Shown in pieces: positions 43,492 to 61,827 of a DNA stretch of 64,000 nt. How positions within the stretch are numbered: position 1 is the first letter of the stretch; each line of letters starts with the position of its first letter. The notes under the pieces are model-generated. The model searched no databases, was not told the DNA's origin, and saw only the letters and a list, made by a program, of their open reading frames with translations. The position numbers and the translations under genes are program-made. The stretch is from a bacterium (GTDB taxonomy: Bacteria > Patescibacteriota > Microgenomatia > UBA1400 > UBA12108): contig JAJYKS010000002.1 in assembly GCA_021788365.1 (NCBI GenBank), positions 32,521 through 96,520 on the forward strand. Reading direction: 5' to 3'.

Positions 43492-43564
43492 GCGGGCATA
43501 GCTCAGTTGGTAGAGCGTCTCCTTGCCAAGGAGAAGGTCGCGAGTTCGAGTCTCGTTGCCCGCT
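43492..43564 (+). tRNA. tRNA-Gly (anticodon GCC)
   Basis: Acceptor GCGGGCA/TGCCCGC, anticodon loop TTGCCAA. Confidence 0.85.
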
Positions 43565-43568
43565 CAAG

Positions 43569-44814: not shown

Positions 44815-44865
44815 CCCGATATATAACCAATTTCCCCAGAGAATGTAAAGAGGTATACTAAAAAG

Positions 44866-46155: not shown

Positions 46156-46164
46156 TTCTCGAAG

Positions 46165-46203
46165 CGTAGATTGTAATATCTAGGACCTCAGTCGTGGTGA
46201 GTG
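46165..46203 (+). repeat. Direct repeat of the tRNA-His leader plus its first 7 nt (second copy at 46315-46353)
   Basis: GGACCTCAGTCGTGGTGAGTG is identical in both copies, preceded by similar TAATATC. Confidence 0.6.
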
Positions 46204-46314
46204 GAGAAGCACATCGAGTTGGTCACAACTCGAGAAATGCCTCCAGATACGAAGTAATCTGGGAGGCGCAGCTGGTTAGACCTGCCGGCAGGCAGGGCGC
46301 GTCAATTCTCCAAG
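46204..46314 (+). other. Hairpin-rich insert between the duplicated tRNA-His leaders, including a D-arm-like fragment (GCGCAGCTGGTTAGACC); possible decayed tRNA-His 5' remnant or small structured RNA
   Basis: Three inverted repeats: CGAGTTG-GTCA-CAACTCG; GCCTCCAGAT...ATCTGGGAGGC; CCTGCCGGCAGG. Confidence 0.35.
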
Positions 46315-46345
46315 CTTAGGTTATAATATCCTGGACCTCAGTCGT

Positions 46346-46420
46346 GGTGAGTGTAGCTCAGCTGGTTAGAGCGCGTCCCTGTGGAGGATGAGGTCGCCGG
46401 TTCGATCCCGGTCACTCACC
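46346..46420 (+). tRNA. tRNA-His (anticodon GTG) with encoded G-1 and C73
   Basis: Acceptor GTGAGTG/CACTCAC, G-1, anticodon loop CTGTGGA. Confidence 0.85.
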
Positions 46421-48016
46421 CATTACAGGATTATTCGACAAATAATCCTTAAAATGCACCATGTTATCGGTCTTTTCGAGAGGTTCGAACCTCCTAGCGA
46501 TTGCGCGGACGTCACAAGCCACAGATTTGAGCATAAATAGGGGTTTTTTGAGCTGTATATCGAGGACTCCATCGGTTAGCACTAGGTTCGAACCAAGATA
46601 GCTCACGATCTCCCGCCGCGTGCGCTCGTCACCATGGGCGAACCGCTCGGCTGCCGTTGCGGCGAATGACAGGTCCTGATCTAGCTCTTGGAGTCGCTCG
46701 TCCACTCTAGTATCGATACTATCGAGGAGCCGTTTCCGCGTCTCCTTGTCGTGCTCTAGCTCGGCCAGGCGGCGCTGGTAGTAGTCTTCGGGCACCTTGT
46801 CGTCGAGATATTTCCCGACCAGCGTGTCCATCTGCTTGAGGACCTCATTATAGCCAGTTTGTGCCTGCTGGAGGCTCGTCTGCCGATCACCTACGGACTT
46901 CTCCTGATCCTTTTTGATCTCACCGATTGCCCAGTCGTGGAATCCTTCGGGTATCTGGACCGCATCGAGAAGCTCACCGAACTGACGCTCCAGTTCTGTC
47001 GAAAGGAGGTAATGTTGGCGGCACGGCCCTTTTTTCTTCGTGCAGCGGTAATAGGTATAGCTATGGGTATTGCCGTTTTCCTGATGTTTTGTCTTTTTCT
47101 CTGCAGTGATCGAGCACCCGCACTCGCCGCACGACATGAGACCAGTATAAGGGAAGTAATGGGTCTTGGGACGAGGCTTATTCTTGAGTCCCAGTACGTA
47201 CTGGATCTCCTCAAACTCTTCGGGTTCGATCGCTTTTTTCGCCTTCGAGTCGTAAAAGGTCCCCGAGCTTGCAGGATACTCAAATCTCCCCGCGTACATC
47301 GGGTTTACCAGGAGATCGTACCAGGTTGTAGAGGGGAGCGTATCAACACGCTTACCGTGGAGACCCAAGGACTCCATATACACGCGTGCCTCGGCGGGTA
47401 TCATCTGGTGGCTGGCGACTAGCTTGAGCCCCTTGGAGACGAGGTCAAACACGTCGTTCGGTAGTATCTCGTCTTCTCCGAGCCGCTTGTACTGGGCATG
47501 ACGGTAGCCGAGCGGCAGACTCGCACCAGGGTACCAACCCCGTTCCGCCTTCTTGAGAAGCCCACGGTGAGTATCGGCACTGAGGTCTCGGCTAAACTGG
47601 TTCGTGAGACCGAACTCGACATACATCATCATGACGTTGTCTTCTGGGTACCAGTTACGGTCGACCGTGCGGATATGTTTGATCTCCCCACGCTGAAGCA
47701 TCCCCATGATCCGCCCTGCGTCGTCGGGGTTACGGGAGAGGCGGGAGAGCTTCCAGACGACAATCCCGTCCGCCTCGCCATTCTCAATCCGCTCAACCAT
47801 CCTGTTGAAAACTGGGCGGCCCACCTTGAACCCAGAGCACGACTCGCTCATAGTATCGACTACTTTGAGCTGATTATCGTGCGCCACATCCCCCATGACC
47901 TCGATCTGGGACTCGATCGAGGCTACCTGGCGGTCCTCGTTCGTCGAGCTTTTACGTGCGTAGACAAAGTAGCGGAGAGGTAGCTTTGGCTTGGTACTAG
48001 AGGTAGGAGCGTACAT
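46412..48016 (-). CDS. Large serine recombinase (resolvase domain + recombinase domain + zinc ribbon)
   Basis: 'YVYARKSSTNEDRQVASIESQ' (catalytic Ser) and 'GIVVWKLSRLSRN'; 534 aa; C-terminal Cys pairs. Confidence 0.85.
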   Translation of the reverse strand: MYAPTSSTKPKLPLRYFVYARKSSTNEDRQVASIESQIEVMGDVAHDNQLKVVDTMSESCSGFKVGRPVFNRMVERIENGEADGIVVWKLSRLSRNPDDAGRIMGMLQRGEIKHIRTVDRNWYPEDNVMMMYVEFGLTNQFSRDLSADTHRGLLKKAERGWYPGASLPLGYRHAQYKRLGEDEILPNDVFDLVSKGLKLVASHQMIPAEARVYMESLGLHGKRVDTLPSTTWYDLLVNPMYAGRFEYPASSGTFYDSKAKKAIEPEEFEEIQYVLGLKNKPRPKTHYFPYTGLMSCGECGCSITAEKKTKHQENGNTHSYTYYRCTKKKGPCRQHYLLSTELERQFGELLDAVQIPEGFHDWAIGEIKKDQEKSVGDRQTSLQQAQTGYNEVLKQMDTLVGKYLDDKVPEDYYQRRLAELEHDKETRKRLLDSIDTRVDERLQELDQDLSFAATAAERFAHGDERTRREIVSYLGSNLVLTDGVLDIQLKKPLFMLKSVACDVRAIARRFEPLEKTDNMVHFKDYLSNNPVMGE

Positions 48017-48032
48017 ATACGACCAGCTTACA

Positions 48033-49175
48033 CTATTTGCTCGTAGTTTGTAGTCGTACCATCTCTGCTGCTATCTGGCGAGCCAGATCATTCGTGCCTC
48101 CAGATGTAGCATTACCGGAAAAGTCTATAGATCGGACGATCTCGTTCACTCTCCCAGGGTCGATCGCGCCGTATGCTTGGTAGGTCGTCGCAATATGCTC
48201 GTGGCCTAGGTTTTGTGAGAGAGCCTTCATCTGCTCGGGGGTAGTAATGTGTTTCTCCGTCTCGGCCGTCACGAAATGGCGGAATGTATGGGGGTAGAAA
48301 TAGGGGAGTCTCATTTGCTTACACCGATCGCGGAAAATCGTACGCATCGAACCAGCATCGGCCCAAAATGCCTTACTCACCCCTTTGGCCTCGTACGCAT
48401 AGTTATCTGGTCCTATCTGGCCGATCTCGGTACTCGGGAAAAGTGGGTCATCCAGCCCGTAGTGTTTCTCTCGGGTGAGGTACTCGTACCACTCGGTGAA
48501 GTAACCCGTGAGCGTGCTATCGAGGGGTAGGAGTGTGGTGTAGATGTCCTTGTTAAACTTCGTCTTTACCCCTAGTGACGGAAGTTGTTTTACGAGTCGT
48601 GCCGCTGGATCATAACACCGTATCGAGAGTGACACGACCGCCCTATCCCGCATCCCCGTGAGCGACGTGAAGGCAATGAGAGCACGGTCCCGCCGATCTG
48701 TCTCCGAGAATGTGGGGAAGCTACAAAGTTGCCTGATCTGCTCCAGGGTAGGATAGCTCGGGAGCCTGGCAGAGAGCGCCTCTCGTTGCTCGCCGCGGGA
48801 TAACTTGAGGTAACTGGCGTACTCTGGACGGACCCGCGACTTGTATCCTGGCTGGCTCGATAGCCACGCAAAGAAGTTGCGGACGTGGCGGAGTGTGTAG
48901 TACCTACTCTTGAGGCCCAGAGGTCGTCCAGAACGTTCATTTGCATGGGTCCCCAGGTACCGCTTAAACTGCTCTGCCCGCTTGTCCGTAAACCGTACGA
49001 AGTCCTCGTAATCGCTAAACTCCTCATACTTGCCGATGGCCTTCTCTACCAATCGGATAGAAGCATCACTCATCTGCTCAGGTCCCTTTAGCCAGGACCA
49101 GTAACGCCGTTTCACCAGCTCGTTTTTCTGCCGAATCTCCCCACTCGTAGACATATTATTCCTTCCCACTCCCAA
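48033..49175 (-). CDS. Tyrosine recombinase/phage-type integrase
   Basis: C-terminal 'HTFRHFVTA...LGHEHIATTYQAY' (R-H-R-Y catalytic box). Confidence 0.8.
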   Translation of the reverse strand: MGVGRNNMSTSGEIRQKNELVKRRYWSWLKGPEQMSDASIRLVEKAIGKYEEFSDYEDFVRFTDKRAEQFKRYLGTHANERSGRPLGLKSRYYTLRHVRNFFAWLSSQPGYKSRVRPEYASYLKLSRGEQREALSARLPSYPTLEQIRQLCSFPTFSETDRRDRALIAFTSLTGMRDRAVVSLSIRCYDPAARLVKQLPSLGVKTKFNKDIYTTLLPLDSTLTGYFTEWYEYLTREKHYGLDDPLFPSTEIGQIGPDNYAYEAKGVSKAFWADAGSMRTIFRDRCKQMRLPYFYPHTFRHFVTAETEKHITTPEQMKALSQNLGHEHIATTYQAYGAIDPGRVNEIVRSIDFSGNATSGGTNDLARQIAAEMVRLQTTSK

Positions 49176-49620
49176 GTGAGTGATACAAAGAGGGCTGGTG
49201 GTCTACATTAGTACCTTCTCCCTCCGCTAATATATGTACTGGTTTGGTGAAATACTTACGTACATCATGACCGCACACCGCGCACTTTCCCTGATACTGT
49301 ATCTCCTCCATTCCCGTCCCGATCCGTTTATGGCAATCTACTACTTTAACGTCGAGACCCTTGACCGCCGTGTGGCACGAGAAGCAAAAAAACTCATCGG
49401 TGCCGAGTGGCACCCGTCGCGCTGCCTGTCGGCTGCGGCAATAGCGCCGCACCTCGTCGCCTAGATAGAGCGAGAAGTGACTGTCGGGGTCGATTGGCCG
49501 CAACCCCCCAGCTCGCCACGTGCGAATAGTCTGCGGGTGGACGCCAAGGCATTCGGCCAGCTCGGTAGTGCTATAGCTCCGTATCCCGATCAGCCTGCGG
49601 GTGCTAATGCGCTTCTTCAT
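49156..49620 (-). CDS. Excisionase/MerR-like HTH DNA-binding protein with C-terminal Cys4 zinc ribbon
   Basis: 'STTELAECLGVHPQTIRTWRAGG' HTH; CFSCH...CAVCGH. Confidence 0.5.
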   Translation of the reverse strand: MKKRISTRRLIGIRSYSTTELAECLGVHPQTIRTWRAGGLRPIDPDSHFSLYLGDEVRRYCRSRQAARRVPLGTDEFFCFSCHTAVKGLDVKVVDCHKRIGTGMEEIQYQGKCAVCGHDVRKYFTKPVHILAEGEGTNVDHQPSLYHSLGSGKE

Positions 49621-49818
49621 ACGTCCTCATGGCTGGTTTACGACTTGGCAGATATACGGCACGGTACAGGTTCACCAAATTGGTCCCAAGCTTTTCCGCA
49701 TCCTCATCCGACAGCTCCACCCCATACTCTTGGAGATATAACTTCTGAAAGGCAATAAGTGAATCTCTTGCTAACATACCTCCAAAATATATGGAGGCAC
49801 TTGATCAACCGAGATCAA

Positions 49819-51048
49819 CTATTGATCAACAACCGCGACGGAGCTATCCAAACTCTCCCGACCGCCTAGATAATCATGGTTAAAGCTAGCACTGTGCATG
49901 TTGTAGGTAAGAAATCTGACCACACCCAAGTCTCCGGCAATACGACTGACCAGAGCTCGTGCGGCGTCGTAGGGTACTCTCCCTGGATTTTTTACTTTCC
50001 CGACATCGACTACGTCCACCATCGAGCCTTTAATATCCTCAAATACAACATTTCCCTCGGGGTCGTCGTCAAGCGCCGCTAACAATATGCCCGCATTGTC
50101 TAGGTCGCGTTTAAACCGATAATCCTTGCCGTTGATCCTCAGGTAAACAAAGTTCTCATCTTTTTTCAAAGACCAGTGAACCCCGATAATTAGGTCGATA
50201 CCACCGGTAGGAGTAACCGGCGTTATACTCGAATGCGTATCTGGTTCTAGCTCTAGGTATTCGAGCGTAAATTGGTGTACCTTAGCTATGTAGTAACGAT
50301 AATCCACAGACTTAAACTCATGCGCCTGCTCTGACGGACCAAATTGCTCTCCCTTAATGATCTTCCTCATCTCTGCCTGCATCGACGACCAGCCCATCAG
50401 CTCAAAAAACTTATTTTTCTTGGCGAAATCGTCGTGGATCTTCCACTTGACGTCGTCGATCGCCCAAAACGCGGTTACGATCTTATCCCAGCTAAACCAT
50501 AGCCTGGTGATCTCGATAATCTTTAGACCAGTCATAATCTGGTCATACTTGGTATAGCTTGGAGAAAACGTCCAGGACGTGATCCGCCGCTCATTACTTA
50601 CTTCTCCATACCTTTGAACAAACTTGAGCTCCGCTTCATTGCCGTCCTCCACCATGGTCATGAGTGCGTAGGATAATTTGTCGTAAAGATCCTCGACATA
50701 GCCCCGAGAGGAGGTCATCCTTCCCTCTACGACATCGCGGAACTCGGCGAGATTTTTAGTCACAACCTTGTCCGTTATCCCAGAATACTTCACATGCGAG
50801 GCCACCTGTTTATAGATTTTCTGTATCTCGTCCACAGCTTTTTGCCACAGTTCATTGACTTCCTTGTACTCGGCGAGCTTTTGCTCCTGGATTGCCTTAA
50901 ACATGCCACCCAAATTTTCCTCTTGGTCAAAGACCCGGACATAATCGTATAGCCAGAGGAAAAAATGCTGCTCGCTATCCGCCGCCATTGCCAAGTCGTA
51001 GATGCGCACAAGCCGCTTGCGTAGTACCTCAACATTTGCCGTTGGCAT
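49819..51048 (-). CDS. Hypothetical protein (409 aa), island cargo
   Basis: Long ORF in a co-directional cluster; no recognisable domain. Confidence 0.4.
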   Translation of the reverse strand: MPTANVEVLRKRLVRIYDLAMAADSEQHFFLWLYDYVRVFDQEENLGGMFKAIQEQKLAEYKEVNELWQKAVDEIQKIYKQVASHVKYSGITDKVVTKNLAEFRDVVEGRMTSSRGYVEDLYDKLSYALMTMVEDGNEAELKFVQRYGEVSNERRITSWTFSPSYTKYDQIMTGLKIIEITRLWFSWDKIVTAFWAIDDVKWKIHDDFAKKNKFFELMGWSSMQAEMRKIIKGEQFGPSEQAHEFKSVDYRYYIAKVHQFTLEYLELEPDTHSSITPVTPTGGIDLIIGVHWSLKKDENFVYLRINGKDYRFKRDLDNAGILLAALDDDPEGNVVFEDIKGSMVDVVDVGKVKNPGRVPYDAARALVSRIAGDLGVVRFLTYNMHSASFNHDYLGGRESLDSSVAVVDQ

Positions 51049-51070
51049 ATACCCTATTTTACGCCGCGGC

Positions 51071-51424
51071 CTACATCGCCAAAGGGACTAGCTCTGTGGC
51101 TCCCGGGACGTCGGGGCTGGCGAAAATGTGATATGTGGTCGCATGGTTCGGATCGGTTCCAGGTTCCAAGACGAGAGCCTCGGCAGGGAAGCCATATTCA
51201 TTGAGGATTGCCAAAATATCGGTATCCGTAGCCTCCGGCGAAACGGAAACTTCTGTCATGGCTGTATCGACAATGTATCCCTCGCTTGTGGGGTGAAATA
51301 CCGGCTGCACATTGCGATGTGCCTGAAGAAGGTCAGGTTTCACGGGTCCAGGGAGAGCCGGAAATCCCTCTACCCACGGATCGGAGACATAGAGGTGTGA
51401 GGATAATTTGCAAGAATAGCTCAT
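51071..51424 (-). CDS. Hypothetical protein (117 aa)
   Basis: ORF; 4-nt overlap with the upstream gene. Confidence 0.3.
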   Translation of the reverse strand: MSYSCKLSSHLYVSDPWVEGFPALPGPVKPDLLQAHRNVQPVFHPTSEGYIVDTAMTEVSVSPEATDTDILAILNEYGFPAEALVLEPGTDPNHATTYHIFASPDVPGATELVPLAM

Positions 51425-53100
51425 ACTGACCCAGGACCTAACTGGGGTGTCTCAAGTCTTTTCTTGGCTGTTTCTTCGTCGGCGACATCCTTGGCCAGTT
51501 GTCTCTGTAGAAGCTCCGCTTGTTGCTGTGCTTGATGATCTTGAAAAATTGCTTGACCGGCCTGAATTGTTGCCCGACCGGCTTTTTTTGCAGCAGTGTA
51601 AAGATTATTGAGGGCATCCAGGGTTCTTTGCTTTGATGCAACGGCAGTGGTAAGGGCGATCATGTTTTCGGCATGTTTACCCATGCGCTCTTTTTCATCC
51701 AGGACTATTTTGGGCCGGATAAACATCTTGGCCAGTCCTGTTTCCTGCTTCTGCACAGTTTGCTGGCTTTCAGCAACGATTTTATTAGTTCTGCGAATAG
51801 TGTCAGCTAGATTGCCGAGCAGTGACATCGTGTCACGCGGATTGTTAACCATGATTTCGCCAATAATTTGGTTGCGTTCGAGTGAGTAAAAAATGATCTT
51901 ACCGCCAACGTTAAAGCCGGTAAGCCATTTGTAGAGAGAATTTTGCAGGAGCGCTCCGCCTTTTTTTCTGATCGTGTCAACTGCCGAAGGTGTACCGATC
52001 GACATAAGATAACCACCAGGAACAGCAGATTTGTTGGTGGTGAGGAGGGATAGTGGTAAAGGAAGGTCGTCCTGTTTTTTAGTGATGTCACGGATTACCA
52101 GGCTTGTATTGGTTAATCCCCAAACTCGATTACGATGAAGTTCCTCCTCATGGTCGGTGAGGACGATTTTGTTGGTGACCAGGTCGGTTACAAACATGGT
52201 CTCCGGTTCGGTTTGGAGGGCCAATTCATCGAGGGCAGTACCCATCGTCTTAAATTGTTCGAAAAGAGCATTAGCCTGAGATTGCTCGGCGATGTCACCG
52301 GCGGCGGCCAATACAGCCAAGTCCAGTTCTTTCATAAGTGTATCTTGAGGTTTACCCATTTTTTCCAACTGGAGTAGGTGTGCGGCCAAGGCCTTCTCCT
52401 CTGGAGTAAGCGGGTAGGCATGGTCGAGATGACCTTGCTTTACCGCCTTAGCCAGTTCTTCAGCTTTGGTGACGATGTCCTTCTCTAAATCAGTTAGCCG
52501 AGCTTGCCCTCGATTACTAAAAACAAAAGCTGGATTAATGTCCAAATATCTCTGCTTAATTTTACTGATGGCGGCGGCGATGGCTGGTGTGGAAGGAACT
52601 TCAAGATCGATATGAGTACCAAAATTCTTATTGATCAAATTTTCGCCTAGATCAAGCGCAGTCTTTTCTATCGTGCTGGCCGGGGGGATGAATAGCAGTC
52701 CATGCTGGAGGATTCCGGCTTTAGCTAGGCGCCAAGCCGCGTCGCCCACGGTCAAGGTTTCTTCTTCTCCGGCCTTGGTAGCGGCAGGTTTGGTGCTGGC
52801 CCAGGGGTGCCCGTCGCTAAGGTGTTTCCAGGCGTCATCGCTAGCCCTAACAATAGCGAGGGGATTGATACTTTGAGGATATTCAGCTGGAGGGGGCGTC
52901 GCTGCTGGTTTAGCAGGTGTTTGCTGACCAATAGCCCTCCATGCGTCTTCAGCAGAGATGCCATTGGCCCACGCTGCTGTGTTTATCGTAGGTGTTGGCG
53001 AAGCCGCACCTTGTTTTCCCAGTGCGCCCCACAGCGCCTCACCGGATTGTTGTGAGAGCCATAGTGCAGCGGGACTGGTGGTTTCTTGTACGGAGGCCAT
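51421..53100 (-). CDS. Hypothetical protein (559 aa) with N-terminal repeated (D/E)AW(K/R)xL motifs and a C-terminal coiled-coil
   Basis: 'EALWGAL', 'EDAWRAIG', 'DDAWKHL' and 'DAAWRLAK' repeats; Gln/Ala-rich C-terminus. Confidence 0.45.
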   Translation of the reverse strand: MASVQETTSPAALWLSQQSGEALWGALGKQGAASPTPTINTAAWANGISAEDAWRAIGQQTPAKPAATPPPAEYPQSINPLAIVRASDDAWKHLSDGHPWASTKPAATKAGEEETLTVGDAAWRLAKAGILQHGLLFIPPASTIEKTALDLGENLINKNFGTHIDLEVPSTPAIAAAISKIKQRYLDINPAFVFSNRGQARLTDLEKDIVTKAEELAKAVKQGHLDHAYPLTPEEKALAAHLLQLEKMGKPQDTLMKELDLAVLAAAGDIAEQSQANALFEQFKTMGTALDELALQTEPETMFVTDLVTNKIVLTDHEEELHRNRVWGLTNTSLVIRDITKKQDDLPLPLSLLTTNKSAVPGGYLMSIGTPSAVDTIRKKGGALLQNSLYKWLTGFNVGGKIIFYSLERNQIIGEIMVNNPRDTMSLLGNLADTIRRTNKIVAESQQTVQKQETGLAKMFIRPKIVLDEKERMGKHAENMIALTTAVASKQRTLDALNNLYTAAKKAGRATIQAGQAIFQDHQAQQQAELLQRQLAKDVADEETAKKRLETPQLGPGSV

Positions 53101-53105
53101 AATAT

Positions 53106-53522
53106 TTATTGAGTATTTTCCTTTACTTCGGTAACATCAGCGTCGATAACCTCGTCGTCTCCATCACCCTCATAAACCACTACATCCCCTCGCTTGTTTA
53201 CAGTTTTTTTTGCACGAGCCTTCTCGATAAATTTTTGGAAAATTCCCGGTTTAGCTGGCTGTTTGGGCTGGTCGGCGAGTTTCTTCCACTCCTCTTCACC
53301 GGTTCGAAGGGCAGCAGCGACGGCCTGCACGACGCCTACCCCTGCAGCATGAGCGAGGTTTTCTGGCAACTTCAACTCTTTGGTTACTTGTTGTGTTACC
53401 CCATCCAAAAACCCCGCTTGTTTAGGTGGAGGGGTGAGAGCCTGCCACGCAGATTCGCTGGCAGAGTCACTGTTACCTTGCTGCCCAGATAATGATTTCC
53501 AGGCTTCATCAGATGTAGTCAT
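53106..53522 (-). CDS. Hypothetical protein (138 aa) with the same AW-type repeats
   Basis: 'DEAWKSL', 'ESAWQAL' and 'EEEWKKL'. Confidence 0.4.
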   Translation of the reverse strand: MTTSDEAWKSLSGQQGNSDSASESAWQALTPPPKQAGFLDGVTQQVTKELKLPENLAHAAGVGVVQAVAAALRTGEEEWKKLADQPKQPAKPGIFQKFIEKARAKKTVNKRGDVVVYEGDGDDEVIDADVTEVKENTQ

Positions 53523-53593
53523 TTGTGCTCCTTTTTATGTATGTATTCTATCCTATGGGTCCACTCCTTGGGAAGAGTTCGGAGTTGTTCACG

Positions 53594-53639
53594 CGCCGCA
53601 CTTGGTGACCATTCTCATGGTCAAGAGCCAAGTGCGGCG
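53594..53639. promoter_or_regulatory. Nested palindrome (CGCCGCACTTGG [TGACCAT TCTC ATGGTCA] AGAG CCAAGTGCGGCG) between two island genes
   Basis: 10-bp outer stem and 7-bp inner stem seen in sequence; no U-tract. Confidence 0.35.
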
Positions 53640-53736
53640 GATTGTCGTGAACGATGTATTTGATTGTAATTTTACCGTGGTCGCCGGATAGGCGAGGGCG
53701 CGCGAGGCGGCCACGGTGCTGGCTAAATGGCCAGGT

Positions 53737-54393
53737 TTACGGGCAGGCACCAACCGTGACGGCAGCAAGATGGATCCAGGATCCAACAGGAAAGGATCCC
53801 GACGCCTCAGCAAGCTGGCCGCGCTGGCACACATTGTTGACACAGGTACTGTCAACGATAGATCCGATTTTAATCGTAGTGCCAGCGGGAATGTTTCCGA
53901 GCCCGTTTGGTCCTCCAGCTGTGGAGTTGGGTTCAGGGCGAACTGTGGCTCCATCAGACATGGTAACGCAGTATGGCTGCCCGCCAGTCGTGGACAGTAA
54001 TGACTGCTGCGAACCGGGGGTGGGAGAGACAAGACTCTGATGAACTGCTGTAGGCGGAACCTGGGAATTCGCGGCTGAGGGAATAGGGCTGGGTGTGCCA
54101 AGGATCACTCCTTCAGTGTTGACGACACCGGTGCTTATGCCCCAGATGAAAAACTTCCCTAGCCAAGGACCAACGAAGATGATGAAGAGCACCACCAGGA
54201 TCAAAGTAATGATCCCAATGACGAACAGGAATGCCTGATGCTTCTTCTTCGCGTATATCACTGGTCCCTCGGCGGATTCTTTCCCGGCCGTAGCCCAACG
54301 CCAGATGATCAAACCGGCAACAATGGCAAAAACCAATGCGCCGAACCAGTGCTGGCCAAGCCATGCGAGTAGTTGAACAATTGTGGTTGGCAT
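53737..54393 (-). CDS. Hypothetical membrane protein (2 TM plus Pro/Ser/Thr-rich and Cys-containing extracytoplasmic region)
   Basis: Two hydrophobic helices in the N-terminal half; C-terminal PST-rich segment with 4 Cys. Confidence 0.45.
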   Translation of the reverse strand: MPTTIVQLLAWLGQHWFGALVFAIVAGLIIWRWATAGKESAEGPVIYAKKKHQAFLFVIGIITLILVVLFIIFVGPWLGKFFIWGISTGVVNTEGVILGTPSPIPSAANSQVPPTAVHQSLVSPTPGSQQSLLSTTGGQPYCVTMSDGATVRPEPNSTAGGPNGLGNIPAGTTIKIGSIVDSTCVNNVCQRGQLAEASGSFPVGSWIHLAAVTVGACP

Positions 54394-54516
54394 GATATTT
54401 CTCCTTTTTGATTTGGAACTGAATTTTTTTGGATACGACTTGAATCTTGCGTTCTATTACTTTGTTACTTTGGACTATCAACCACCTCCTTTCGGGATGG
54501 GGTTTGTACACATTCG

Positions 54517-56262
54517 CTATGGTGCGGATGTGGGGGTGGGTGAATTTGCCGTTTGCTGGATTAGCTGTTGCCAGAGTGTCCAGACAAACTTTGCCTGACC
54601 TTCGTGCTGATTCCAGCACGATCCCTTGAGGGGATGGTAGGCAAAACGGTCAACGAACACGGCCTCGGAGGTTGCGCTAGGCAAACCCTGGTCGCTGATC
54701 TTCCTGCATGCAGCATCAGCTGCCGCGGGGATATTTGTGCGATCGGGCTGGTCTGGACCTACAGGCCAATAGTCATTCCACGTACCCGGCATGAACTGCC
54801 AGACACCTGCGGCTCCCACGGGGGAAACGGCGGTGTTGTTGTAAACGGAGCTTTCAGAGAAAGCCACCGCGACAACGAGGCGTGGATCACAGGTACCGTT
54901 CTTTTGGTACGCTGTGACAGCGGCATCCCAAACGTCTTGGGGTGCATAAAAACGCACCTCACTGCCATTCCAATAAGTAATCTGGAATTCCGGCAGAGCG
55001 CTGGGGACGCGGGCAACTGGAGCAGAGGCAACTGCGGGGGGTGGAGAATAGAGGCTGGGGATAAAGTACATCCCGGCCAAGACACCCGCGACCAAGAGAG
55101 TGACAACCACAAACGTCTGTCCATGGCGTTTTTTCTTGGTTTCGGCAGTTGGCTCGTAAGCTCCGCGGGCTTGGCGCAGGCGACCCAGGAGGGTCAAGCC
55201 AAGCCAAAAGGCCAGCATACCGTACACGAGGGCGTTAGGGACGCTCGACTCGCCGTTTAACCAGTCTCGGAAGAGTCTGGTGCGGTAAGCCAAAACATCC
55301 GGCCATTGCCACTGGGCGTAAAAGTATGCGCCAATAGTCATGACCACGCCGACGATGACGGCTACTTCAATGGCTCCTCGCCAGAGACTTTTCTTTCTGG
55401 CGACTTCGCCTTGGGTTCGAGGCTTGCCAATCCGCAAAATTACTTTTGGACCGGCAAATATGAGCCACAAGACGGCGAGGACCACCAACCCCCAAACGGC
55501 TGCTGTTTGAAAAGACTGATAGATCGCAGCAGCGTGCACCTCCTTTGGTGCGGGGTTTGTTTTTACGGTGGGGACAACTATGGTTCCAGGGATATTTGTT
55601 GGAACAATCCCAGGAACTTGCGGAAGCGGGTTTGTGGTGGGTCCACTTGTGACCGTGAGGGTGAGACTATCACCATCCACAGTCCAGTGGAGCACTACTG
55701 GTCCGTAGTCGTTGACGACGCGGACGTCCGCTCCGTTTTTTGTGCTGGGGTCAGCCGAGTTGCGGGATGTTGCTACCGCAATTGAGTATCGGCTATCGAC
55801 CCCGGGGATGGGTGTCGGGTGTGGTGAGTAACTATCGACAGTGAGACCGGCAGATGCCAGTGTCTCCGAGACCATCGATATTATGTCACACGCGCCGCCA
55901 CCTTCAGTAATCCCCCCTACTTCGGAGTAGCCCATACCGTACTCGACGGTATAGGGTCCGAAGACGCCGTTCAGCCAGGTGGTCCCTGACGGGATGGTCA
56001 CCTGACCCTCAAAGCTATCGGGGACGCTAAGATACGCGTCCTTAAACTTTGAACCTGGCGAAACACCCCAGAGTGTCATCAACATATTGAGACGGTAGTT
56101 AGTGTAGCTACCATAGTTAAGTCTCATGTTGAAGACCTTTGAGGTTGGGTTGAAGCTTATCGGCCGTATGGCCTGCACTGTCCCGGTGGGGGACAGAAGA
56201 GCGATTAGCGCAAGGAGAAGAACTCCCAGCGCCAAGGTTTGCTTGGTTTTCATGGAATTCAA
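54517..56262 (-). CDS. Secreted/membrane fusion protein: VanW-like N-terminal domain, TM helices, C-terminal lytic transglycosylase (SLT-like) domain
   Basis: Signal peptide; 'GGGACDIISMVSETLASAGL' (VanW-like GGG-C motif); 3-4 TM helices; C-terminal 'FSESSVYNN...GAAGVWQFMPGTWNDY' (SLT motif). Confidence 0.55.
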   Translation of the reverse strand: MNSMKTKQTLALGVLLLALIALLSPTGTVQAIRPISFNPTSKVFNMRLNYGSYTNYRLNMLMTLWGVSPGSKFKDAYLSVPDSFEGQVTIPSGTTWLNGVFGPYTVEYGMGYSEVGGITEGGGACDIISMVSETLASAGLTVDSYSPHPTPIPGVDSRYSIAVATSRNSADPSTKNGADVRVVNDYGPVVLHWTVDGDSLTLTVTSGPTTNPLPQVPGIVPTNIPGTIVVPTVKTNPAPKEVHAAAIYQSFQTAAVWGLVVLAVLWLIFAGPKVILRIGKPRTQGEVARKKSLWRGAIEVAVIVGVVMTIGAYFYAQWQWPDVLAYRTRLFRDWLNGESSVPNALVYGMLAFWLGLTLLGRLRQARGAYEPTAETKKKRHGQTFVVVTLLVAGVLAGMYFIPSLYSPPPAVASAPVARVPSALPEFQITYWNGSEVRFYAPQDVWDAAVTAYQKNGTCDPRLVVAVAFSESSVYNNTAVSPVGAAGVWQFMPGTWNDYWPVGPDQPDRTNIPAAADAACRKISDQGLPSATSEAVFVDRFAYHPLKGSCWNQHEGQAKFVWTLWQQLIQQTANSPTPTSAP

Positions 56263-56278
56263 CTCCTTTCTTTTAAAT

Positions 56279-56331
56279 TTGAAACCAGCAAGACAGAGGA
56301 CGAAAATTCATCCGCTATCAGCTGGTTTCAA
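56279..56331 (-). promoter_or_regulatory. 11-bp-stem hairpin (TTGAAACCAGC...GCTGGTTTCAA) in the 5' leader of the VanW-SLT gene, ~6 nt before its AAAGGAG RBS
   Basis: Seen in sequence. Confidence 0.3.
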
Positions 56332-56562
56332 TCGCGATAAAAGCTCTATATAGGCCGCAGTCAATTTTGTCGTATCCGTATAAAAGGAGAATATCTCTTT
56401 TATCAAATACAAACGTTCACTTTTTAAGGTGCGTGATCTCCACGACAACCAACTCGCTTCGAGTAGATGTCGCCAAAATCACGTATTCAGTGGGCAGTAA
56501 CCTAGCTAGGGCGCAACCAATCCCACGCGATGTGGTAGTAGATGCGTGTGTAGCTATTGCGT

Positions 56563-56668
56563 AAGATTATAGCCTATTAGTCAAGTTATAGGTCTGGAAA
56601 AAACTGACTGAACCCATGGTACTTAAAAAAGTGCACTAAGCACCATGGGTTCGACTTACTCAGTCAGT
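56563..56668. repeat. Repeat-family member R-a: TTATAGCC/TTATAGGT motif plus a 66-bp palindrome P1 (ACTGACTGA...GTGCAC...TCAGTCAGT)
   Basis: Shares the ACTGACTGA and TTATAGG cores with four other loci in 56.5-61.8 kb. Confidence 0.6.
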
Positions 56669-56698
56669 CGGCGAAACGAGCCACGTAACTATTTGGGA

Positions 56699-56929
56699 TT
56701 AATTCGCTCGCCGAATTAGGTGGAGATTGGTGGGACAGACCGAGGCTGTTTGACCAAATTGGTCGTCCACATCACGGTAGATGGTAACTTGCGTATTGCC
56801 ATCACGCAGTGATGAAACAACACCAATGGTCCCAGCCACGTGAAGTGGATGAGACTTACCAGAGAGCGTGATTTGCATGGCGACGACGTCGCCTAGTCGG
56901 GGAGCTTCCCCGTTTGGATAATTTTTCAT
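56699..56929 (-). CDS. Small hypothetical protein (76 aa)
   Basis: ORF only. Confidence 0.3.
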   Translation of the reverse strand: MKNYPNGEAPRLGDVVAMQITLSGKSHPLHVAGTIGVVSSLRDGNTQVTIYRDVDDQFGQTASVCPTNLHLIRRAN

Positions 56930-57043
56930 TTTTTATATCCTCTTGGTGAAATGTTGGATCAAATTTTGCGGCTTATTGAAGCCCGCGATAAACTACGAGC
57001 ACTCGTACGACGGGAAACTTACATTGTGTCTGGTGGAATCATT

Positions 57044-57311
57044 ATATTCTCCTTTTCAAAAATGGATTTCACGCTGGGGACTAATTTAATTCCCAAAGTG
57101 AAACCCATTTTGTTGGAACACTGACTGAGTGTTAAAGTGCAAGAAGCGATCGGGCAGACGCAAACGTCCACACATCGCCTATTACTCGACGGAGTTTACA
57201 CAACAAATGCGTATGAGTCAAGGTTATAGGCTAAAACCATAGGAAAAATGAGGACCGCTGGTCTGGTAGGTCGCGAAAATCTCTCGAACACGCTCCCGCA
57301 GGCTACCCAAA
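57044..57311. repeat. Repeat-family member R-b (~270 bp), about 80% similar over ~200 bp to R-d at 61625-61825; 3' ~90 bp also matches R-c
   Basis: Contains the hairpin AAAATGGATTTCAC...GTGAAACCCATTTT, the ACTGACTGAGTGTTAAAGTGCAA core, GAGTTTACACAACA, TTATAGGCTAAAACCATAGG and a GGTAGG...CTACCCAAAG element. Confidence 0.65.
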
Positions 57312-57347
57312 GATATAGTTTGATATATTAAAACAGAATGATTGGTT

Positions 57348-57461
57348 ATGGTAGCAGGTGAACTACAACGTGCTATAGAGGCCGCACAAAAGCTGGTAGA
57401 GAGCGGCGGAATGACCGCCGATGAGTTTGAGGAGCTCAAACGAAATCTCCTGGGGGATTAG
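57348..57461 (+). CDS. Possible 37-aa SHOCT-domain peptide
   Basis: 'MVAGELQRAIEAAQKLVESGGMTADEFEELKRNLLGD' fits the SHOCT consensus (GxIT.EEFE..K..LL); directly downstream of R-b. Confidence 0.3.
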   Translation: MVAGELQRAIEAAQKLVESGGMTADEFEELKRNLLGD

Positions 57462-57655
57462 ATTATACCTACCGAACTTCGCATCGAGGGTCAAGAGGCC
57501 AACGGCATCCCGTCCCACGCCAAACCCGCAGTTACGGAAGAAGAGACAACACCAGAGGAGCGCTGGGCGAAGAAAGGTAAAGAAACACCTGCCAGCGGGG
57601 CAGCCAATACCGCGATGAACCTAGAAATTATAGAGCGGTCACAAAAATAGAAAAA

Positions 57656-58039
57656 GTGATATGGATAATTCGTATGACATCACCTGACTATGTAAGGCTT
57701 GAACGGATGGCCACCTGGGCACGAGATACACTCCATCCTTATCTCCTAGAGCTCATCCCTCAGTATGCCTCCGCCACCTTGGCCATGAACATCCAGATGG
57801 CGGCGGGGGTAGTGTATGGGAGAGATGTGTACGGGGTTAATGCCGTGAGTGATCGTGAGCCGATAGCGGCAGATGATCTAGAGCAGTTTGCGGCCATGTG
57901 TGCAGAAGCAATCGCTCACTTCGACACCGATCACCTCTGGACTCCACGATATTCTGCCAAGAAATACAAAAGTAATGATCAGGTCCTGATCATCTCCCAC
58001 CACTTCCGCGCTAACCAGTACTCTCATGTCTGGAATTAA
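57656..58039 (+). CDS. Hypothetical protein (127 aa)
   Basis: ORF within the repeat-flanked cassette. Confidence 0.35.
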   Translation: MIWIIRMTSPDYVRLERMATWARDTLHPYLLELIPQYASATLAMNIQMAAGVVYGRDVYGVNAVSDREPIAADDLEQFAAMCAEAIAHFDTDHLWTPRYSAKKYKSNDQVLIISHHFRANQYSHVWN

Positions 58040-58074
58040 TCGCTCTAATCATTTATACTACGAACAGTAAAAAC

Positions 58075-58431
58075 ATGTTTGATCAAAAGAAGTACAACCA
58101 TTTAGGGTTCACCGAAAAAATAGCTTACCTTACAAACGCTGTAAGGGATGGCGAAATCGGAGAACCAGAAATTTCGAAAATTGTGAAGGATGATCGATCT
58201 GAGGAAGTTATTTTTAACGTCGTTTATCAAATATCTAATGGCCTGGATAGTGACCTTGAAAGTGGTAGCAGAGCCACGCAGGTAGCAGAACAACTAGCCA
58301 TGGCAAGAATGACAGAACTTAAATCCCATTTTCCTCACGGACCTATAGGCAGAGACGCCAAAGGGAAAATGGAATACGATACAACTGGAGACGCACTAAA
58401 ATCTCTCCAAGATAAAATGAATAGACGTTAG
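58075..58431 (+). CDS. Hypothetical protein (118 aa)
   Basis: ORF within the cassette. Confidence 0.35.
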   Translation: MFDQKKYNHLGFTEKIAYLTNAVRDGEIGEPEISKIVKDDRSEEVIFNVVYQISNGLDSDLESGSRATQVAEQLAMARMTELKSHFPHGPIGRDAKGKMEYDTTGDALKSLQDKMNRR

Positions 58432-58433
58432 CT

Positions 58434-58667
58434 ATGCCTAATCCAAGTGAAACACCACCCAAGGGAATCTCGGGAGAAGCACTTGCCGACTGGTGGCGTG
58501 AACACGGTGCCAACATGCAACACGTCGAGATACTTTCAGATGATGAGCGTATTTGCCCTCGATGTGGTGATGTTCAACCTTGTACTGGAACTGACGAATG
58601 TACGTCTTGTGGAGCATCGTTAAAAGGAGCGAAACGACGTCGGCGAAATCTCTTCCAGTCGCAGTAA
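58434..58667 (+). CDS. Small zinc-ribbon protein (77 aa), basic C-terminus
   Basis: CPRCG...CTSCG; 3-nt gap from the upstream ORF. Confidence 0.4.
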   Translation: MPNPSETPPKGISGEALADWWREHGANMQHVEILSDDERICPRCGDVQPCTGTDECTSCGASLKGAKRRRRNLFQSQ

Positions 58668-58684
58668 GTATTTAGTCTAGAACA

Positions 58685-58785
58685 AGCTATAGGCTGAAAC
58701 GATATGCAAATCGATGGCCTGTGATCTGGTAGGTAGCAAAGATCTCTCGAACGACCTCCCGCAAACTACCCAAAGCAATCAAATG
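58685..58785. repeat. Repeat-family member R-c (matches the 3' ~90 bp of R-b), directly upstream of the 58811 ORF
   Basis: Shares the conserved blocks TCTGGTAGGT, ATCTCTCGAAC, CTCCCGCA and CTACCCAAAG with R-b. Confidence 0.6.
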
Positions 58786-58810
58786 GCTAAATACTCGGGA
58801 GAGATTTTCT

Positions 58811-59185
58811 ATGTTGTCGGATAAAATGTGTAGCACCATTTCCCAAGACATACAAAACTACTGGGATACCCATATTTCAGAGCTCGATGCACAATTACAA
58901 GGGAAGGAGCGGGGCCATAAAATTGCCGACATCATAGACGAAAAAACAACTATGTATCTGAGCTCAAAATATGACAGTGCATACGAACGCAAGAAGTCGC
59001 CGGGAGGAGATCCCATGCCTCGCTCTATGGGCGACATTTGGATCAAAGATCAGGGGGTATATCATCCGGTGAACATTAAAACAGGAATAAAAGGATCAGA
59101 GGGGCAGCCAAATATGGTATCTATGCACAAACTACTAAACGCAATCCTCTCAACTCGATCGATTCCTATTATCTACTCATGGTAA
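58811..59185 (+). CDS. Hypothetical protein (124 aa); may be the N-terminal half of a frameshifted ~240-aa nuclease partnered with the downstream methyltransferase
   Basis: A 7-nt overlap and frame change with 59179..59532 next to an A-run; 'GDIWIKD...VNIKTG' is loosely PD-(D/E)xK-like. Speculative. Confidence 0.3.
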   Translation: MLSDKMCSTISQDIQNYWDTHISELDAQLQGKERGHKIADIIDEKTTMYLSSKYDSAYERKKSPGGDPMPRSMGDIWIKDQGVYHPVNIKTGIKGSEGQPNMVSMHKLLNAILSTRSIPIIYSW

Positions 59186-59532
59186 AGATCAAAGAAAAAT
59201 CAGTGACAGATAAAACAACCGCGAGCATTATATTTGTCGACATGTTAAACATTATTGACTACATTACCTACGACGCCGGCCCAGGTCAAATAATGCTCAA
59301 AGCAAAAGCATTCTTTGACAAAATAGATCGAGAAGGTGCAGCCTTCCAAAATGGGTCGACGATAAAAGAAAAAGTCGAGAAATTGGCAGCACTCATGAGA
59401 GACGGGGAATCGCGGCTAGTAAGCAATCGGAAGAAGCGACTTGAGGTAATTGAAAAAAGTATTACGTCATATTTAGACAATACCCCTTTTGTTGTGAGCG
59501 TAGACAATCAAGCAAGGTTCAATTTAGCATAA
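59179..59532 (+). CDS. Hypothetical protein (117 aa); possible C-terminal half of the same split gene
   Basis: Overlaps the upstream ORF in another frame; its stop overlaps the methyltransferase start. Confidence 0.3.
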   Translation: MVKIKEKSVTDKTTASIIFVDMLNIIDYITYDAGPGQIMLKAKAFFDKIDREGAAFQNGSTIKEKVEKLAALMRDGESRLVSNRKKRLEVIEKSITSYLDNTPFVVSVDNQARFNLA

Positions 59533-61166
59533 TGAGCATCGCGCGCAGAAATAGGGCCGACAAGCGTCAATTGGGTCAATTTTTAACACCAAATAGATTG
59601 TCGCGTAAAATTGTCGATTATGCTCGCCCCAAGATAACCGATTTGATTTTAGAGCCCTCATTCGGATCTGGTTCGTTTATAGAATCAATTCTTGATCATT
59701 TCCACGACAAGAATGTTAGTTACAAAAACGCGGCAAAAATGATTGCGGGGGTCGAGATAGACACGGCGCTCTACCAGCAAGCCCTACACACATTCCACGC
59801 CAAATACGGGCTGTCTGCAAAAGATTTCGCCGAGCTATCATGTGATGATTATTTTCGCTGGGGCTCTGATCAAGCAACACTCCTACATCCGGAGAAATAC
59901 TTTGCAAAAAACCTTGAAAAATATGATTTGGTCATAGGCAATCCACCGTTTGGGGGCACATTTGATAAACAAATAGAAGACCAACTAGACCGAATATATG
60001 GATTCCGACTCGGAGAAAAAATAAAAAAAGAAACGTACGCATTTTTCATTATTAAATCAATCGATCTACTAAAAGATCTCGGGCGTCTCGTCTTTATCTG
60101 CTCGGATACCTTCCTTACGATTAACACCATGAAAGGTCTCAGGAAAGTATTGATGGATACGGGCAGTGTTAGGATCCGTAGCCTCAAAGAATTCTCAGAC
60201 GAGACATCGCACCCCATGGTAATCATCGATTATCAAAAAGGACCAGTCGCAAGCACAGTATACGTCGACAACGACGAAATATCCGTAGCAGACATAAAGC
60301 AAACGCCAAACTACTCGTGGAAAATAAATAGTGAACTACTGAAATATTTCAACGGTAAACTATGCGGGGAGTACGTTGTAGCCACAAGTGGCATGACCGT
60401 CGGTAAAAACGAGTATTTTATAAAAAAGATAGGAAATAATAACACCATCGAAGAACGATACAAATACGAATTATTTCAGGACCCAATTACGCTCACCAAA
60501 GAGCTGCAAAAAGCTCGGCTAGGGAAGCTATCGGAAAAACGAAAGCAAGAGATACAGCTCCTCGAATCCAAAGGAGTGACAACAACCAATGTCAAAGTTT
60601 CGTTAAAAGCAAAACCCACAACCGTTCAGCTACCCAACAAAAATTACAAATACTACAACAAGGGCCAAACAAAAAGGTTATACGCCAACCCCAAATATGT
60701 AATTTACTGGAAGGACGCCGGCAAAGCTGTATACCTATTTAAATACAATGGCCCATGGTATTTGCACGGCGTGGGCGGGAAAAAATACTTTGAGAAAGAG
60801 GGAATAACCTGGCAATTGGTTGCAAACAAACTATATGTACGGTATCTGCCAAGTGGGTACATCCTGGATAGTGGGTCACCCGCCGCCTTCCTACGGCAGG
60901 GTATAAAGAAAGACGAACTATATTTTATCCTCGGTTGGTTGGCGACCGATATTGCAACCGATATATTGAAGAAAGTGATCAACCACACACGCAACATTCA
61001 AGGTAAAGACGTCGAAAGGATGCCGTATCCAACCTGGGTATCAGCCACCGACAAAAAGAGGGCTATCGCTATAGTTAAGAATGCTGTCGCAAACTTGATG
61101 AGTGGACAAAACACGGATACCGATCTCACCGTAGCAAAATTAAATTCATTATTCAGACAATCGTAG
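59532..61166 (+). CDS. N6-adenine DNA methyltransferase, gamma-class (Eco57I/TaqI-like) with C-terminal target-recognition region
   Basis: Motif I 'LEPSFGSGSF' and motif IV 'IGNPPFGG' in gamma order; 544 aa. Confidence 0.8.
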   Translation: MSIARRNRADKRQLGQFLTPNRLSRKIVDYARPKITDLILEPSFGSGSFIESILDHFHDKNVSYKNAAKMIAGVEIDTALYQQALHTFHAKYGLSAKDFAELSCDDYFRWGSDQATLLHPEKYFAKNLEKYDLVIGNPPFGGTFDKQIEDQLDRIYGFRLGEKIKKETYAFFIIKSIDLLKDLGRLVFICSDTFLTINTMKGLRKVLMDTGSVRIRSLKEFSDETSHPMVIIDYQKGPVASTVYVDNDEISVADIKQTPNYSWKINSELLKYFNGKLCGEYVVATSGMTVGKNEYFIKKIGNNNTIEERYKYELFQDPITLTKELQKARLGKLSEKRKQEIQLLESKGVTTTNVKVSLKAKPTTVQLPNKNYKYYNKGQTKRLYANPKYVIYWKDAGKAVYLFKYNGPWYLHGVGGKKYFEKEGITWQLVANKLYVRYLPSGYILDSGSPAAFLRQGIKKDELYFILGWLATDIATDILKKVINHTRNIQGKDVERMPYPTWVSATDKKRAIAIVKNAVANLMSGQNTDTDLTVAKLNSLFRQS

Positions 61167-61245
61167 TGAATGAACTGACTGAATCATGGTGCTTTGAGTG
61201 CACAAAGCACCATGATTCTTGACTCAGTCAGTTTTAGTATTCACC
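61165..61245. repeat. Palindrome P2 (~80 bp; GTGAAT-ACTGACTGA-ATCATGGTGC...GTGCAC...GCACCATGAT-TCAGTCAGT-ATTCAC), related to P1; directly after the methyltransferase stop
   Basis: Seen in sequence; shares the ACTGACTGA, GTGCAC and AGCACCATG blocks with P1. Confidence 0.6.
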
Positions 61246-61624
61246 ACCTTTGGCGAGGAAGAAATCCATGCTAGCTCCACTCGTGTCCGAATTGGTCGCG
61301 GTGTTTATTATGTTCCCCACGGCGCGTGCACCCTCCGGGGCAGCCTTTTCGCGAGCATGCACTGCCGCATCCTTGCCCACCATCAAAAACTTGGATGGAG
61401 GTAAATGAAGTTGGCAGGAAGTCCAGCTGCGCAACAGGCATTAGCAAGCTCTGCCCTTTGAGTGAAGTTACGATCTGAACGGACGCAGTTGTTGGGGTAC
61501 TTGATTGTGGTGCAGTGTTCATTCTTAACTACTCCTCTATTAAAATTTTTCTTGCATTTTGAGATTTGTAAAACATTGGAACTGTGGAACAAAAAACTAT
61601 ACATGGTACGGTGGTTTCATTTCT

Positions 61625-61825
61625 ATTATCTCCTCATAAAATGGATTTCGCGCTGGGGACTAGCAAATAATTCCCAAAGTGAAATCCATTTCGTAGGAGT
61701 ACTGACTGAGTGTTAAGGTGCAAAAAGAGATCGCAAAAGACGCAAACGCCTACCGATCTCCAGTTACGGGGTCGAGTTTACACAACAGATACGCATTAGT
61801 CAACAGTTATAGGTCATAATAGGTA
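61625..61825. repeat. Repeat-family member R-d (direct repeat partner of R-b)
   Basis: Hairpin AAAATGGATTTCGC...GTGAAATCCATTT; ACTGACTGAGTGTTAAGGTGCAA; GAGTTTACACAACA; TTATAGGTCATAATAGG. Confidence 0.65.
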
Positions 61826-61827
61826 GG

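Follow-up and report, generated by a model that had tools for sequence, protein, structure and literature searches.

Genes at the locus

The window analysed here is a stretch of 64,000 nucleotides (nt) of contig JAJYKS010000002.1 (assembly GCA_021788365.1), from a bacterium of the Patescibacteriota. This work concerns its interval 57348–61166, which holds a gene for an N6-adenine DNA methyltransferase, two overlapping open reading frames (ORFs) immediately upstream of it, and four small ORFs further upstream. A previous sequence-only reading had taken the interval for a single mobile cassette between direct repeats, with a novel anti-phage or toxin-antitoxin module hidden around the methyltransferase. 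All of the ORFs that it named are present where it placed them, co-directional and closely spaced, and the repeats are real. However, comparison with four relatives (L001, L008, L083 and L084) puts a boundary between inserted and resident DNA inside the interval, at 58767/58768, between the last small ORF, which encodes a zinc-ribbon protein, and the first of the overlapping ORFs, so that it is not one repeat-bounded unit. We are fairly confident that it consists of two independent neighbours, a resident type II restriction-modification (R-M) operon and the cargo end of a 12,345-bp genomic island, made up as follows.

58811..59532, plus strand: restriction endonuclease (R) gene with a 1-nt deletion, made up of ORF124 (58811–59185) and ORF117 (59179–59532), as delimited by alignment to intact alleles
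59532..61166, plus strand: gamma-class N6-adenine DNA methyltransferase (M) gene, 544 amino acids (aa), intact, with Pfam matches Eco57I and N6_Mtase
46347..46422, plus strand: tRNA-His including the encoded CCA (ARAGORN, Rfam), integration site of the island, with the 5-nt core ACCCA
46423..58767, no strand assigned: genomic island of 12,345 bp, absent from L001, L008, L083 and L084

A single-base deletion splits the restriction endonuclease gene

No intact reading frame for the endonuclease is present in this genome, where it is divided into ORFs of 124 and 117 aa that overlap by 7 nt (ATGGTAA) in different frames. When ORF124 and ORF117 were joined conceptually, the product matched 120 single proteins over their full length, nearly all of them of 230–250 aa and the best 89% identical; the full-length homologues measure 233–240 aa, and the intact protein of a sister strain 240 aa. 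The family alignment places the change of frame about 10 codons upstream of the ORF overlap, and nucleotide alignment revealed the lesion itself at codon 114: L008 and L001 read CTCAAAC where the window reads CTCAAC, a change from AAA to AA at 59152–59153. The two ORFs together make up a single type II restriction endonuclease gene that carries a frameshift. This had been suspected previously, for an endonuclease of about 240 aa, and both the length of the homologues and the fold described below bear this out. The frameshift had been expected near 59170–59190; it exists, but lies some 30 nt upstream of the ORF overlap.

The R gene is intact in all four relatives, of which L008 and L083 are about 99% identical to the window in the flanks, L084 (GCA_021839925.1) 82–94% in aligned segments, and L001 about 82–89%. 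Once restored, the window gene shows 0 differences in 723 positions from the intact allele at 9279–10001 of L083 and a single, synonymous one from that of L008. With no further difference from an intact allele, the mutation must be very recent.

The frameshifted sequence recurs in L009 and L010, two assemblies that match the window at 100% identity over 15.9 kb; this makes a one-off assembly error unlikely, and we regard the frameshift as very probably genuine. That it reflects an error of sequencing or assembly, in which case the R-M system of this strain would be fully functional, could be argued from its nature (one base, in a short homopolymer), from the match of the remaining gene to the intact alleles, and from the possibility that the three assemblies sharing it derive from one read set. 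Such an error is nevertheless improbable, since the sequence is identical in three separately built contigs (164.9 kb from NCBI, 130.8 kb from ENA, of the MEGAHIT-style k141 kind, and 27.7 kb from Logan), a miscall of AAA as AA is atypical for short reads, and sister-strain assemblies of the same style read AAA.

The endonuclease family has a SwaI/HincII-like fold

No Pfam, NCBIfam or PADLOC model describes the endonuclease family, and Pfam gave matches in 0 of the 25 members scanned. Neither ORF124 nor ORF117 gave matches in these libraries or in PHROG except weak ones to HNH_I-A and PtuB on the C-terminal helix, which were set aside as spurious because only 2 of the 25 members show them. Invariant in the 107 aligned members are K32, E33, G35, H36, the segment R70-S-M-G-D74-x-W76, N87-x-K89, G97, N100, D117-x-Y119, G156-x-G-Q159, M161 and R206. 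An AlphaFold2 model computed from the family alignment reached a predicted local distance difference test score (pLDDT) of 94.7 and a predicted template modelling score (pTM) of 0.87. Foldseek comparison of this model with the PDB recovered R.SwaI (E=1.9e-7) and about 40 chains of R.HincII (E from 3e-7 to 2.5e-5), with a probability of 1.00, template modelling scores of about 0.5 and identities of 12–18%; R.EcoRV (E of about 0.02) and archaeal Holliday-junction resolvases were matched more weakly. In the model, D74 opens one strand, N87-x-K89 lies in the next, and residues 184–222 form a helix of 39 residues. On this basis, the gene upstream of the methyltransferase is predicted to encode an endonuclease of the PD-(D/E)XK type, about 240 aa long and with the architecture of SwaI, HincII and EcoRV.

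These three enzymes are mutually closest structural relatives, homodimeric type IIP PD-(D/E)XK endonucleases that cut centrally to leave blunt ends (PMC5415892). The catalytic residues of SwaI are D76, D93 and K95, and its C-terminus is a long helix, exchanged by domain swapping, that starts at residue 184 and bridges the dimer (PMC5415892). The family resembles the group in size (about 226–258 aa), in its mixed alpha/beta core and in its strand layout, one strand beginning with the catalytic Asp and the following one bearing x-K, and it resembles SwaI in the long C-terminal helix, which begins at about residue 184 in the family model too (PMC5415892). It differs from the group in the lack of sequence similarity detectable beyond the Foldseek identities given above, and from SwaI in its active site: whereas D74 and K89 are invariant, position 87, where SwaI has D93, is an invariant Asn and not Asp or Glu. 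E33 and D117, also invariant, could be candidates for a compensating or third acid. The spacing of D114 and D127 in HincII matches the 13-residue spacing between D74 and N87 of the family, and MspI has a comparable D...N-x-K site.

In the window, ORF124 retains E33, D74, N87 and K89 together with the catalytic strands and is missing the remainder of the sheet along with the C-terminal long helix, while ORF117 has no catalytic residues and starts at a native internal Met. Loss of nuclease activity in this strain would be the expected result of such a truncation.

The methyltransferase is intact and stands alone

The start of the methyltransferase gene overlaps the R stop codon (TAATG). In its product, motif I (E41-P-S-F-G45-S-G47-S-F49) precedes motif IV (N137-P-P-F140-G-G), which is the gamma-class order, and the Pfam matches to Eco57I (1.2e-15) and N6_Mtase (1.1e-14) are above cutoffs. 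Every residue invariant in 32 homologues is kept, including E41-P-S-F-G-S-G-S-F49 and N137-P-P-F140, and the protein is 96% identical to P0121, the methyltransferase of an R-intact strain. The previous observation that this methyltransferase has no intact restriction enzyme beside it is correct, the R gene being broken in this strain.

Residues 129–240 match M.TaqI, which likewise has motif I ahead of NPPF, and residues 360–502 match the target-recognition region of PglX from bacteriophage exclusion (BREX) systems. Assignment to BREX/PglX or to the fused type IIG enzymes was rejected, the match of 104 bits against a cutoff of 500 covering the protein partially (catalytic core and target-recognition region). 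In contrast to PglX and type IIG enzymes, the window enzyme is a stand-alone protein of 544 aa accompanied by a small separate nuclease, neither 1,200 aa long nor fused. No other BREX genes lie nearby, the neighbours being pfkB and the island.

Some strain differences were also noted in this gene. At codons 244, 247 and 311 the methyltransferase has Y, N and K of its own, as against S, G and E in all three R-intact strains; these positions are not conserved in the family. Divergence from L008, L083 and L084 climbs steeply towards the 3' end (60700–61166), with about 80 of the 98 differences from L008 falling in the last 435 nt, and homology to L008 and L083 ends exactly at the stop codon, beyond which these strains carry an unrelated minus-strand gene (complete in L008, with 136 aa; a homologue of 120 aa cut by the contig end in L083). 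The right side of the operon looks like a recombination breakpoint or a variable hotspot.

The R-M pair recurs in many phyla

In five of five metagenome contexts, at 34–45% identity, the nuclease gene is directly followed by one for an Eco57I/N6_Mtase protein of 510–574 aa. A scan of one genome per GTDB species yielded nuclease matches at 70 loci. About 65 of them have a full-length methyltransferase orthologue (42–50% identity) that starts 0–105 nt downstream on the same strand; the loci without one are contig ends or decayed copies. Among the hosts are members of the Chloroflexota, Planctomycetota, Elusimicrobiota, Acidobacteriota, Actinomycetota, Armatimonadota and Gemmatimonadota and of several candidate-phyla groups. 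We conclude that the operon is a type II (IIP-like) R-M system whose M gene is intact and whose R gene was inactivated recently.

Decayed versions of the system were observed in L020, L062, L074 and L077–L079, either as a truncated methyltransferase or as nuclease remnants without a methyltransferase. As several genomes hold such copies, erosion of this R-M system is a recurrent event.

Counts of 6-bp palindromes gave a weak hint of a target site. In 56 kb of this genome (46423–58767 excluded), 10.5 copies of TTCGAA were expected and 2 found, and for TTTAAA 13.5 were expected and 4 found. Pooling 75–76 loci that carry the R-M pair gave 85 copies of TTCGAA where 178 were expected. In both sets this sequence ranks second among the 6-bp palindromes by depletion, but several others are equally depleted, and with the hint lying within a general depletion of palindromes no target was assigned.

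A 12.3-kb island is inserted at tRNA-His

The limits of the island follow from the relatives that lack it. Positions 1–2944 of L008 correspond to window 43479–46422, and positions 2940–5339 to window 58768–61166, and the same pattern is found in L083, L084 and L001. The insertion lies exactly after the encoded CCA of tRNA-His, and both junctions read ACCCA; the expected empty-site junction is ACCCA followed by AAGCAATC, and that of a circular form would be CTACCCA followed by TTACAGG. Presence/absence polymorphism, a junction at the 3' end of a tRNA gene and adjoining recombinases, as expected of a tRNA island, are all found here. In the four relatives the R gene begins 39 nt after tRNA-His; since it now sits downstream of co-directional small ORFs instead, the whole stretch has come to resemble a single operon.

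The recombinases lie at the tRNA end of the island.

46412..49620, minus strand: recombination module, with a large serine recombinase (46412–48016; Pfam Resolvase and Zn_ribbon_recom), a tyrosine integrase (48033–49175; Phage_integrase) and an HTH_17/MerR-like protein (49156–49620; HTH_17)

The serine recombinase and the tyrosine integrase are thus adjacent, and the stop codon of the former lies inside the 3' end of tRNA-His. A core of 5 nt would suit the serine recombinase as the inserting enzyme. Among the other island ORFs, those of 409, 117, 559, 138 and 218 aa have no matches in Pfam, NCBIfam or PHROG, and a membrane protein of 581 aa shows an SLT domain only; this protein apart, the same three libraries detected no recognisable conjugation or phage genes in the island.

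Upstream of tRNA-His we observed a 53-nt duplication (46154–46206 and 46304–46356) that comprises a TATAAT-like box together with the initial 10 nt of the tRNA. Behind the first copy, 110 nt (46196–46305) fold into three hairpins (z-score −3.1) and could be an unannotated small RNA sharing the promoter type of the tRNA. Elsewhere in the window, Rfam detected an eighth tRNA at 14651–14723 (39 bits), between tRNA-Lys and tRNA-Glu, which was not reported by ARAGORN.

The small ORFs are island cargo

The distal end of the island carries the following small ORFs.

56699..56929, minus strand: 76-aa ORF without family matches, between hairpin H and repeat R-b (see below); gene called in L009 and L010
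57348..57461, plus strand: SHOCT-like peptide of 37 aa, with a Pfam SHOCT match (E=3e-4) below the gathering score; gene called in L009
57674..58039, plus strand: 121-aa ORF (127 aa if read from the GTG at 57656), no relatives found
58075..58431, plus strand: 118-aa all-helical protein of a very rare family, with motifs EEVIFN and GKMEYDTT
58434..58667, plus strand: 77-aa CxxC...CxxC zinc-ribbon protein, with weak Zn_Ribbon_1 and DZR matches

None of these five ORFs has a defence or toxin-antitoxin match in PADLOC, Pfam, NCBIfam or PHROG, which speaks against the hidden defence or toxin-antitoxin module proposed previously; the PADLOC scan of the translated cassette that had been suggested with that proposal was run and gave no match to a small ORF. 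The sole match of the 121-aa ORF among 5.8 billion proteins is itself, with none in IMG/VR, and neither this ORF nor the 77-aa one has relatives in viral or metagenome contigs. For the 118-aa protein, five distant relatives of 78–119 aa (four of them of 111–119 aa) were found among 1.84 billion representatives, and the viral and metagenome contigs added one already-known locus only. Its AlphaFold2 model is an all-helical bundle (pLDDT 87) that matched nothing among PDB folds with E below 0.1.

A link between the small ORFs and the methyltransferase finds no support in gene neighbourhoods either. The small ORFs are absent from 75 of 75 other loci with this R-M pair, and the relatives of the 118-aa protein adjoin genes for FtsK_alpha and FtsK_gamma fragments, near Fic/RhuM genes, where there is no methyltransferase. 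The small ORFs are lineage-specific island cargo and not partners of the methyltransferase. As a further observation, the TAG of the SHOCT ORF is followed in frame by 62 more open codons (57459–57650, rich in E, T and P) up to a second TAG, and this open frame may be due to chance (about 5%) or be the relic of a longer gene.

Repeats and hairpins around the operon

Two direct repeats and a pair of similar hairpins are shared between the end of the island and its surroundings.

56597..56665, no strand assigned: hairpin H, terminator-like, 3' of the minus-strand 76-aa ORF; about 80% similar to H', −29 kcal/mol, z-score −4.3
57032..57230, no strand assigned: repeat R-b, island copy, a direct repeat 78.5% identical to R-b'
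57225..57312, no strand assigned: repeat R-c, 88 nt, an attachment-site-like junction inside the island that ends CTACCCAAAG; 78% identical to R-c'
58688..58775, no strand assigned: repeat R-c', at the island's right end, with its final 8 nt (58768–58775) beyond the junction
61173..61232, no strand assigned: hairpin H' with U-run, terminator of the R-M operon; −35.7 kcal/mol, z-score −7.2, kept in L084
61610..61813, no strand assigned: repeat R-b', native chromosomal copy upstream of pfkB (61828–62802), in the same place in L084 (4126–4328)

The R-b repeats had been thought to delimit the mobile element. As R-b' is native chromosome, present upstream of pfkB in the island-free L084, the pair does not bound a mobile unit. 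Both copies of R-b contain a promoter-like site on the minus strand (TTGACT-17-TAAACT), and each lies about 370–440 nt from a similar long hairpin. Predicted folding of R-b gave z-scores of −3.2 on the plus and −4.5 on the minus strand for the island copy, and −3.2 to −4.9 overall. In this arrangement, at 56597–57230 and 61173–61813 of the window and at 3590–4328 of L084, the flanks are 78–80% conserved, but the minus-strand gene between hairpin and repeat differs each time: the island has the 76-aa ORF, L084 a Cys-rich protein of 78 aa that carries a signal peptide, and the right copy of the window a sequence unrelated to either. We read this arrangement as a conserved module of promoter/leader, gene and terminator in which the gene is exchangeable. 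Rfam found nothing in 56300–61900 at E up to 1, R-b had zero matches in IMG/VR and the JGI metagenomes, and R-c had zero in IMG/VR.

R-c and R-c' both end CTACCCAAAG, a sequence that consists of the tRNA-end core and three bases from the start of the chromosomal flank, and the final AAG of R-c' is the chromosomal sequence that follows tRNA-His in the island-free strains. R-c is not a decayed tRNA-His copy, as it has no significant similarity to this gene past the terminal ACCCA. A circularly permuted element comprising the R-M operon and its flanks, joined at a shared TATAGG, was also considered; it is ruled out by the position of R-c' inside the island and its absence from the R-M-bearing sister strains.

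The R-c repeats most likely reflect tandem accretion at the tRNA. In such a process, the 1.46-kb segment from the SHOCT ORF to the zinc-ribbon ORF would be what is left of an older element, related and by now decayed, beside which the present island would have been added. With tRNA-integrated islands that have undergone tandem accretion this locus shares insertion at the tRNA 3' end, recombinases next to the tRNA, and a distal segment without recombinases between attachment-site-like repeats; in contrast to those of the integrative and conjugative element (ICE) kind, the identical core is of 5 nt only, two types of recombinase are present, and no conjugation or phage genes are recognisable apart from the SLT-domain membrane protein. 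The ICESt elements of Streptococcus thermophilus are an instance of tandem accretion of an ICE and a cis-mobilisable remnant.

Alternatively, the R-c-flanked segment (57313–58775) could be an autonomous accessory cassette, mobilised in cis by the recombinases of the island and serving in anti-restriction or in regulation of the R-M system. This would suit the 88-nt direct repeats on both sides, each ending in the tRNA-end core, and the genes of the segment, which since the insertion read into the R-M operon; moreover, the 118-aa ORF at least is a real, conserved and rare protein of variable regions. We consider it a doubtful explanation, as the segment has no functional match of any kind, is found in one genome only, and shows no evidence of independent mobility. 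Equally doubtful, taken together, are two broader proposals, namely that such a cassette has a new function and that the paired elements H and R-b mark an undescribed expression slot into which different small-peptide genes are swapped between strains and mobile elements; such a slot could combine promoter and terminator with a structured leader or a small RNA.

Discussion

Together, the genes and their relatives point to the following picture of the R-M system, in which fold and synteny are observed and the activities are predicted. The methyltransferase would modify adenine in a specific site, its translation being coupled to the R stop codon, and a homodimeric SwaI/HincII-like nuclease would cut unmethylated copies of that site, probably leaving blunt ends. 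Loss of one A at codon 114 would leave a nuclease that is truncated after the catalytic strands and lacks the remaining core and the C-terminal helix, and methylation would then continue in this strain without restriction.

Several points weigh against this picture or parts of it. The endonuclease family has no characterised member, and because its second catalytic acid is an invariant Asn, nuclease activity is deduced solely from the fold and the gene context. When the PDB was searched with family profiles, the one match was to YutD and non-significant, so that there is no sequence-level match to a solved structure, and the intact nuclease had no match in plasmid and phage records. The three assemblies that carry the frameshift possibly come from the same or related read sets, even if a sequencing artefact is unlikely. 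As to the island, accretion is modelled from two R-c copies and a 5-nt core, with no related island found elsewhere, and the diverged copy of the chromosomal H/R-b module that the island carries is not accounted for.

The view from which this work started, namely one R-b-bounded mobile cassette with a novel anti-phage or toxin-antitoxin module around the methyltransferase, draws on the common direction and close spacing of the genes, the repeats on either side, and a GC content of 42–48% in the region, below the approximately 51% of the rest of the genome. It is very improbable, given that the R-M pair occurs in the four relatives with no small ORFs, the breakpoint lying at 58767/58768, that the right repeat is resident DNA in the island-free L084, that the small ORFs have no defence or toxin-antitoxin matches, and that they accompany 0 of the 75 other R-M loci. 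The R-M pair is part of the resident chromosome, and the four small ORFs are part of another unit, the 12.3-kb island at tRNA-His. Residual activity of the split nuclease, by recoding at the frameshift or by its two fragments assembling, is hardly credible, because, although ORF117 starts at a native internal Met overlapping the ORF124 stop codon (ATGGTAA) and ORF124 holds E33, D74, N87 and K89, there is neither a slippery heptamer nor a long homopolymer at CUCAACUCG, no Shine-Dalgarno-like sequence lies 5' of the internal ATG, the break falls within the beta-sheet core and parts the catalytic strands from the long C-terminal helix (the dimer bridge in SwaI, PMC5415892), and 107 of 107 aligned family members are single chains.

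We see no sign of a new defence mechanism here. The R-M pair is ordinary in kind and decay of R genes is common. In practical terms, the annotation should merge the two "hypothetical" ORFs into one type II endonuclease gene with a frameshift, and describe the methyltransferase as very recently orphaned. Only the R-defective strain carries the island, which the four R-intact strains lack; this is compatible with restriction loss having allowed acquisition of the island, and could equally be coincidence. Such a natural contrast between strains fits the notion that a genome which has ceased to restrict becomes accessible to foreign DNA, though one such strain amounts to an anecdote. The new part is modest: a nuclease family so far without a profile or characterisation, found almost entirely in uncultured bacteria, with a SwaI/HincII-like fold and an Asn variant of the active site. 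As such, the family constitutes a well-defined candidate for a new SwaI/HincII-like specificity, open to expression and characterisation.

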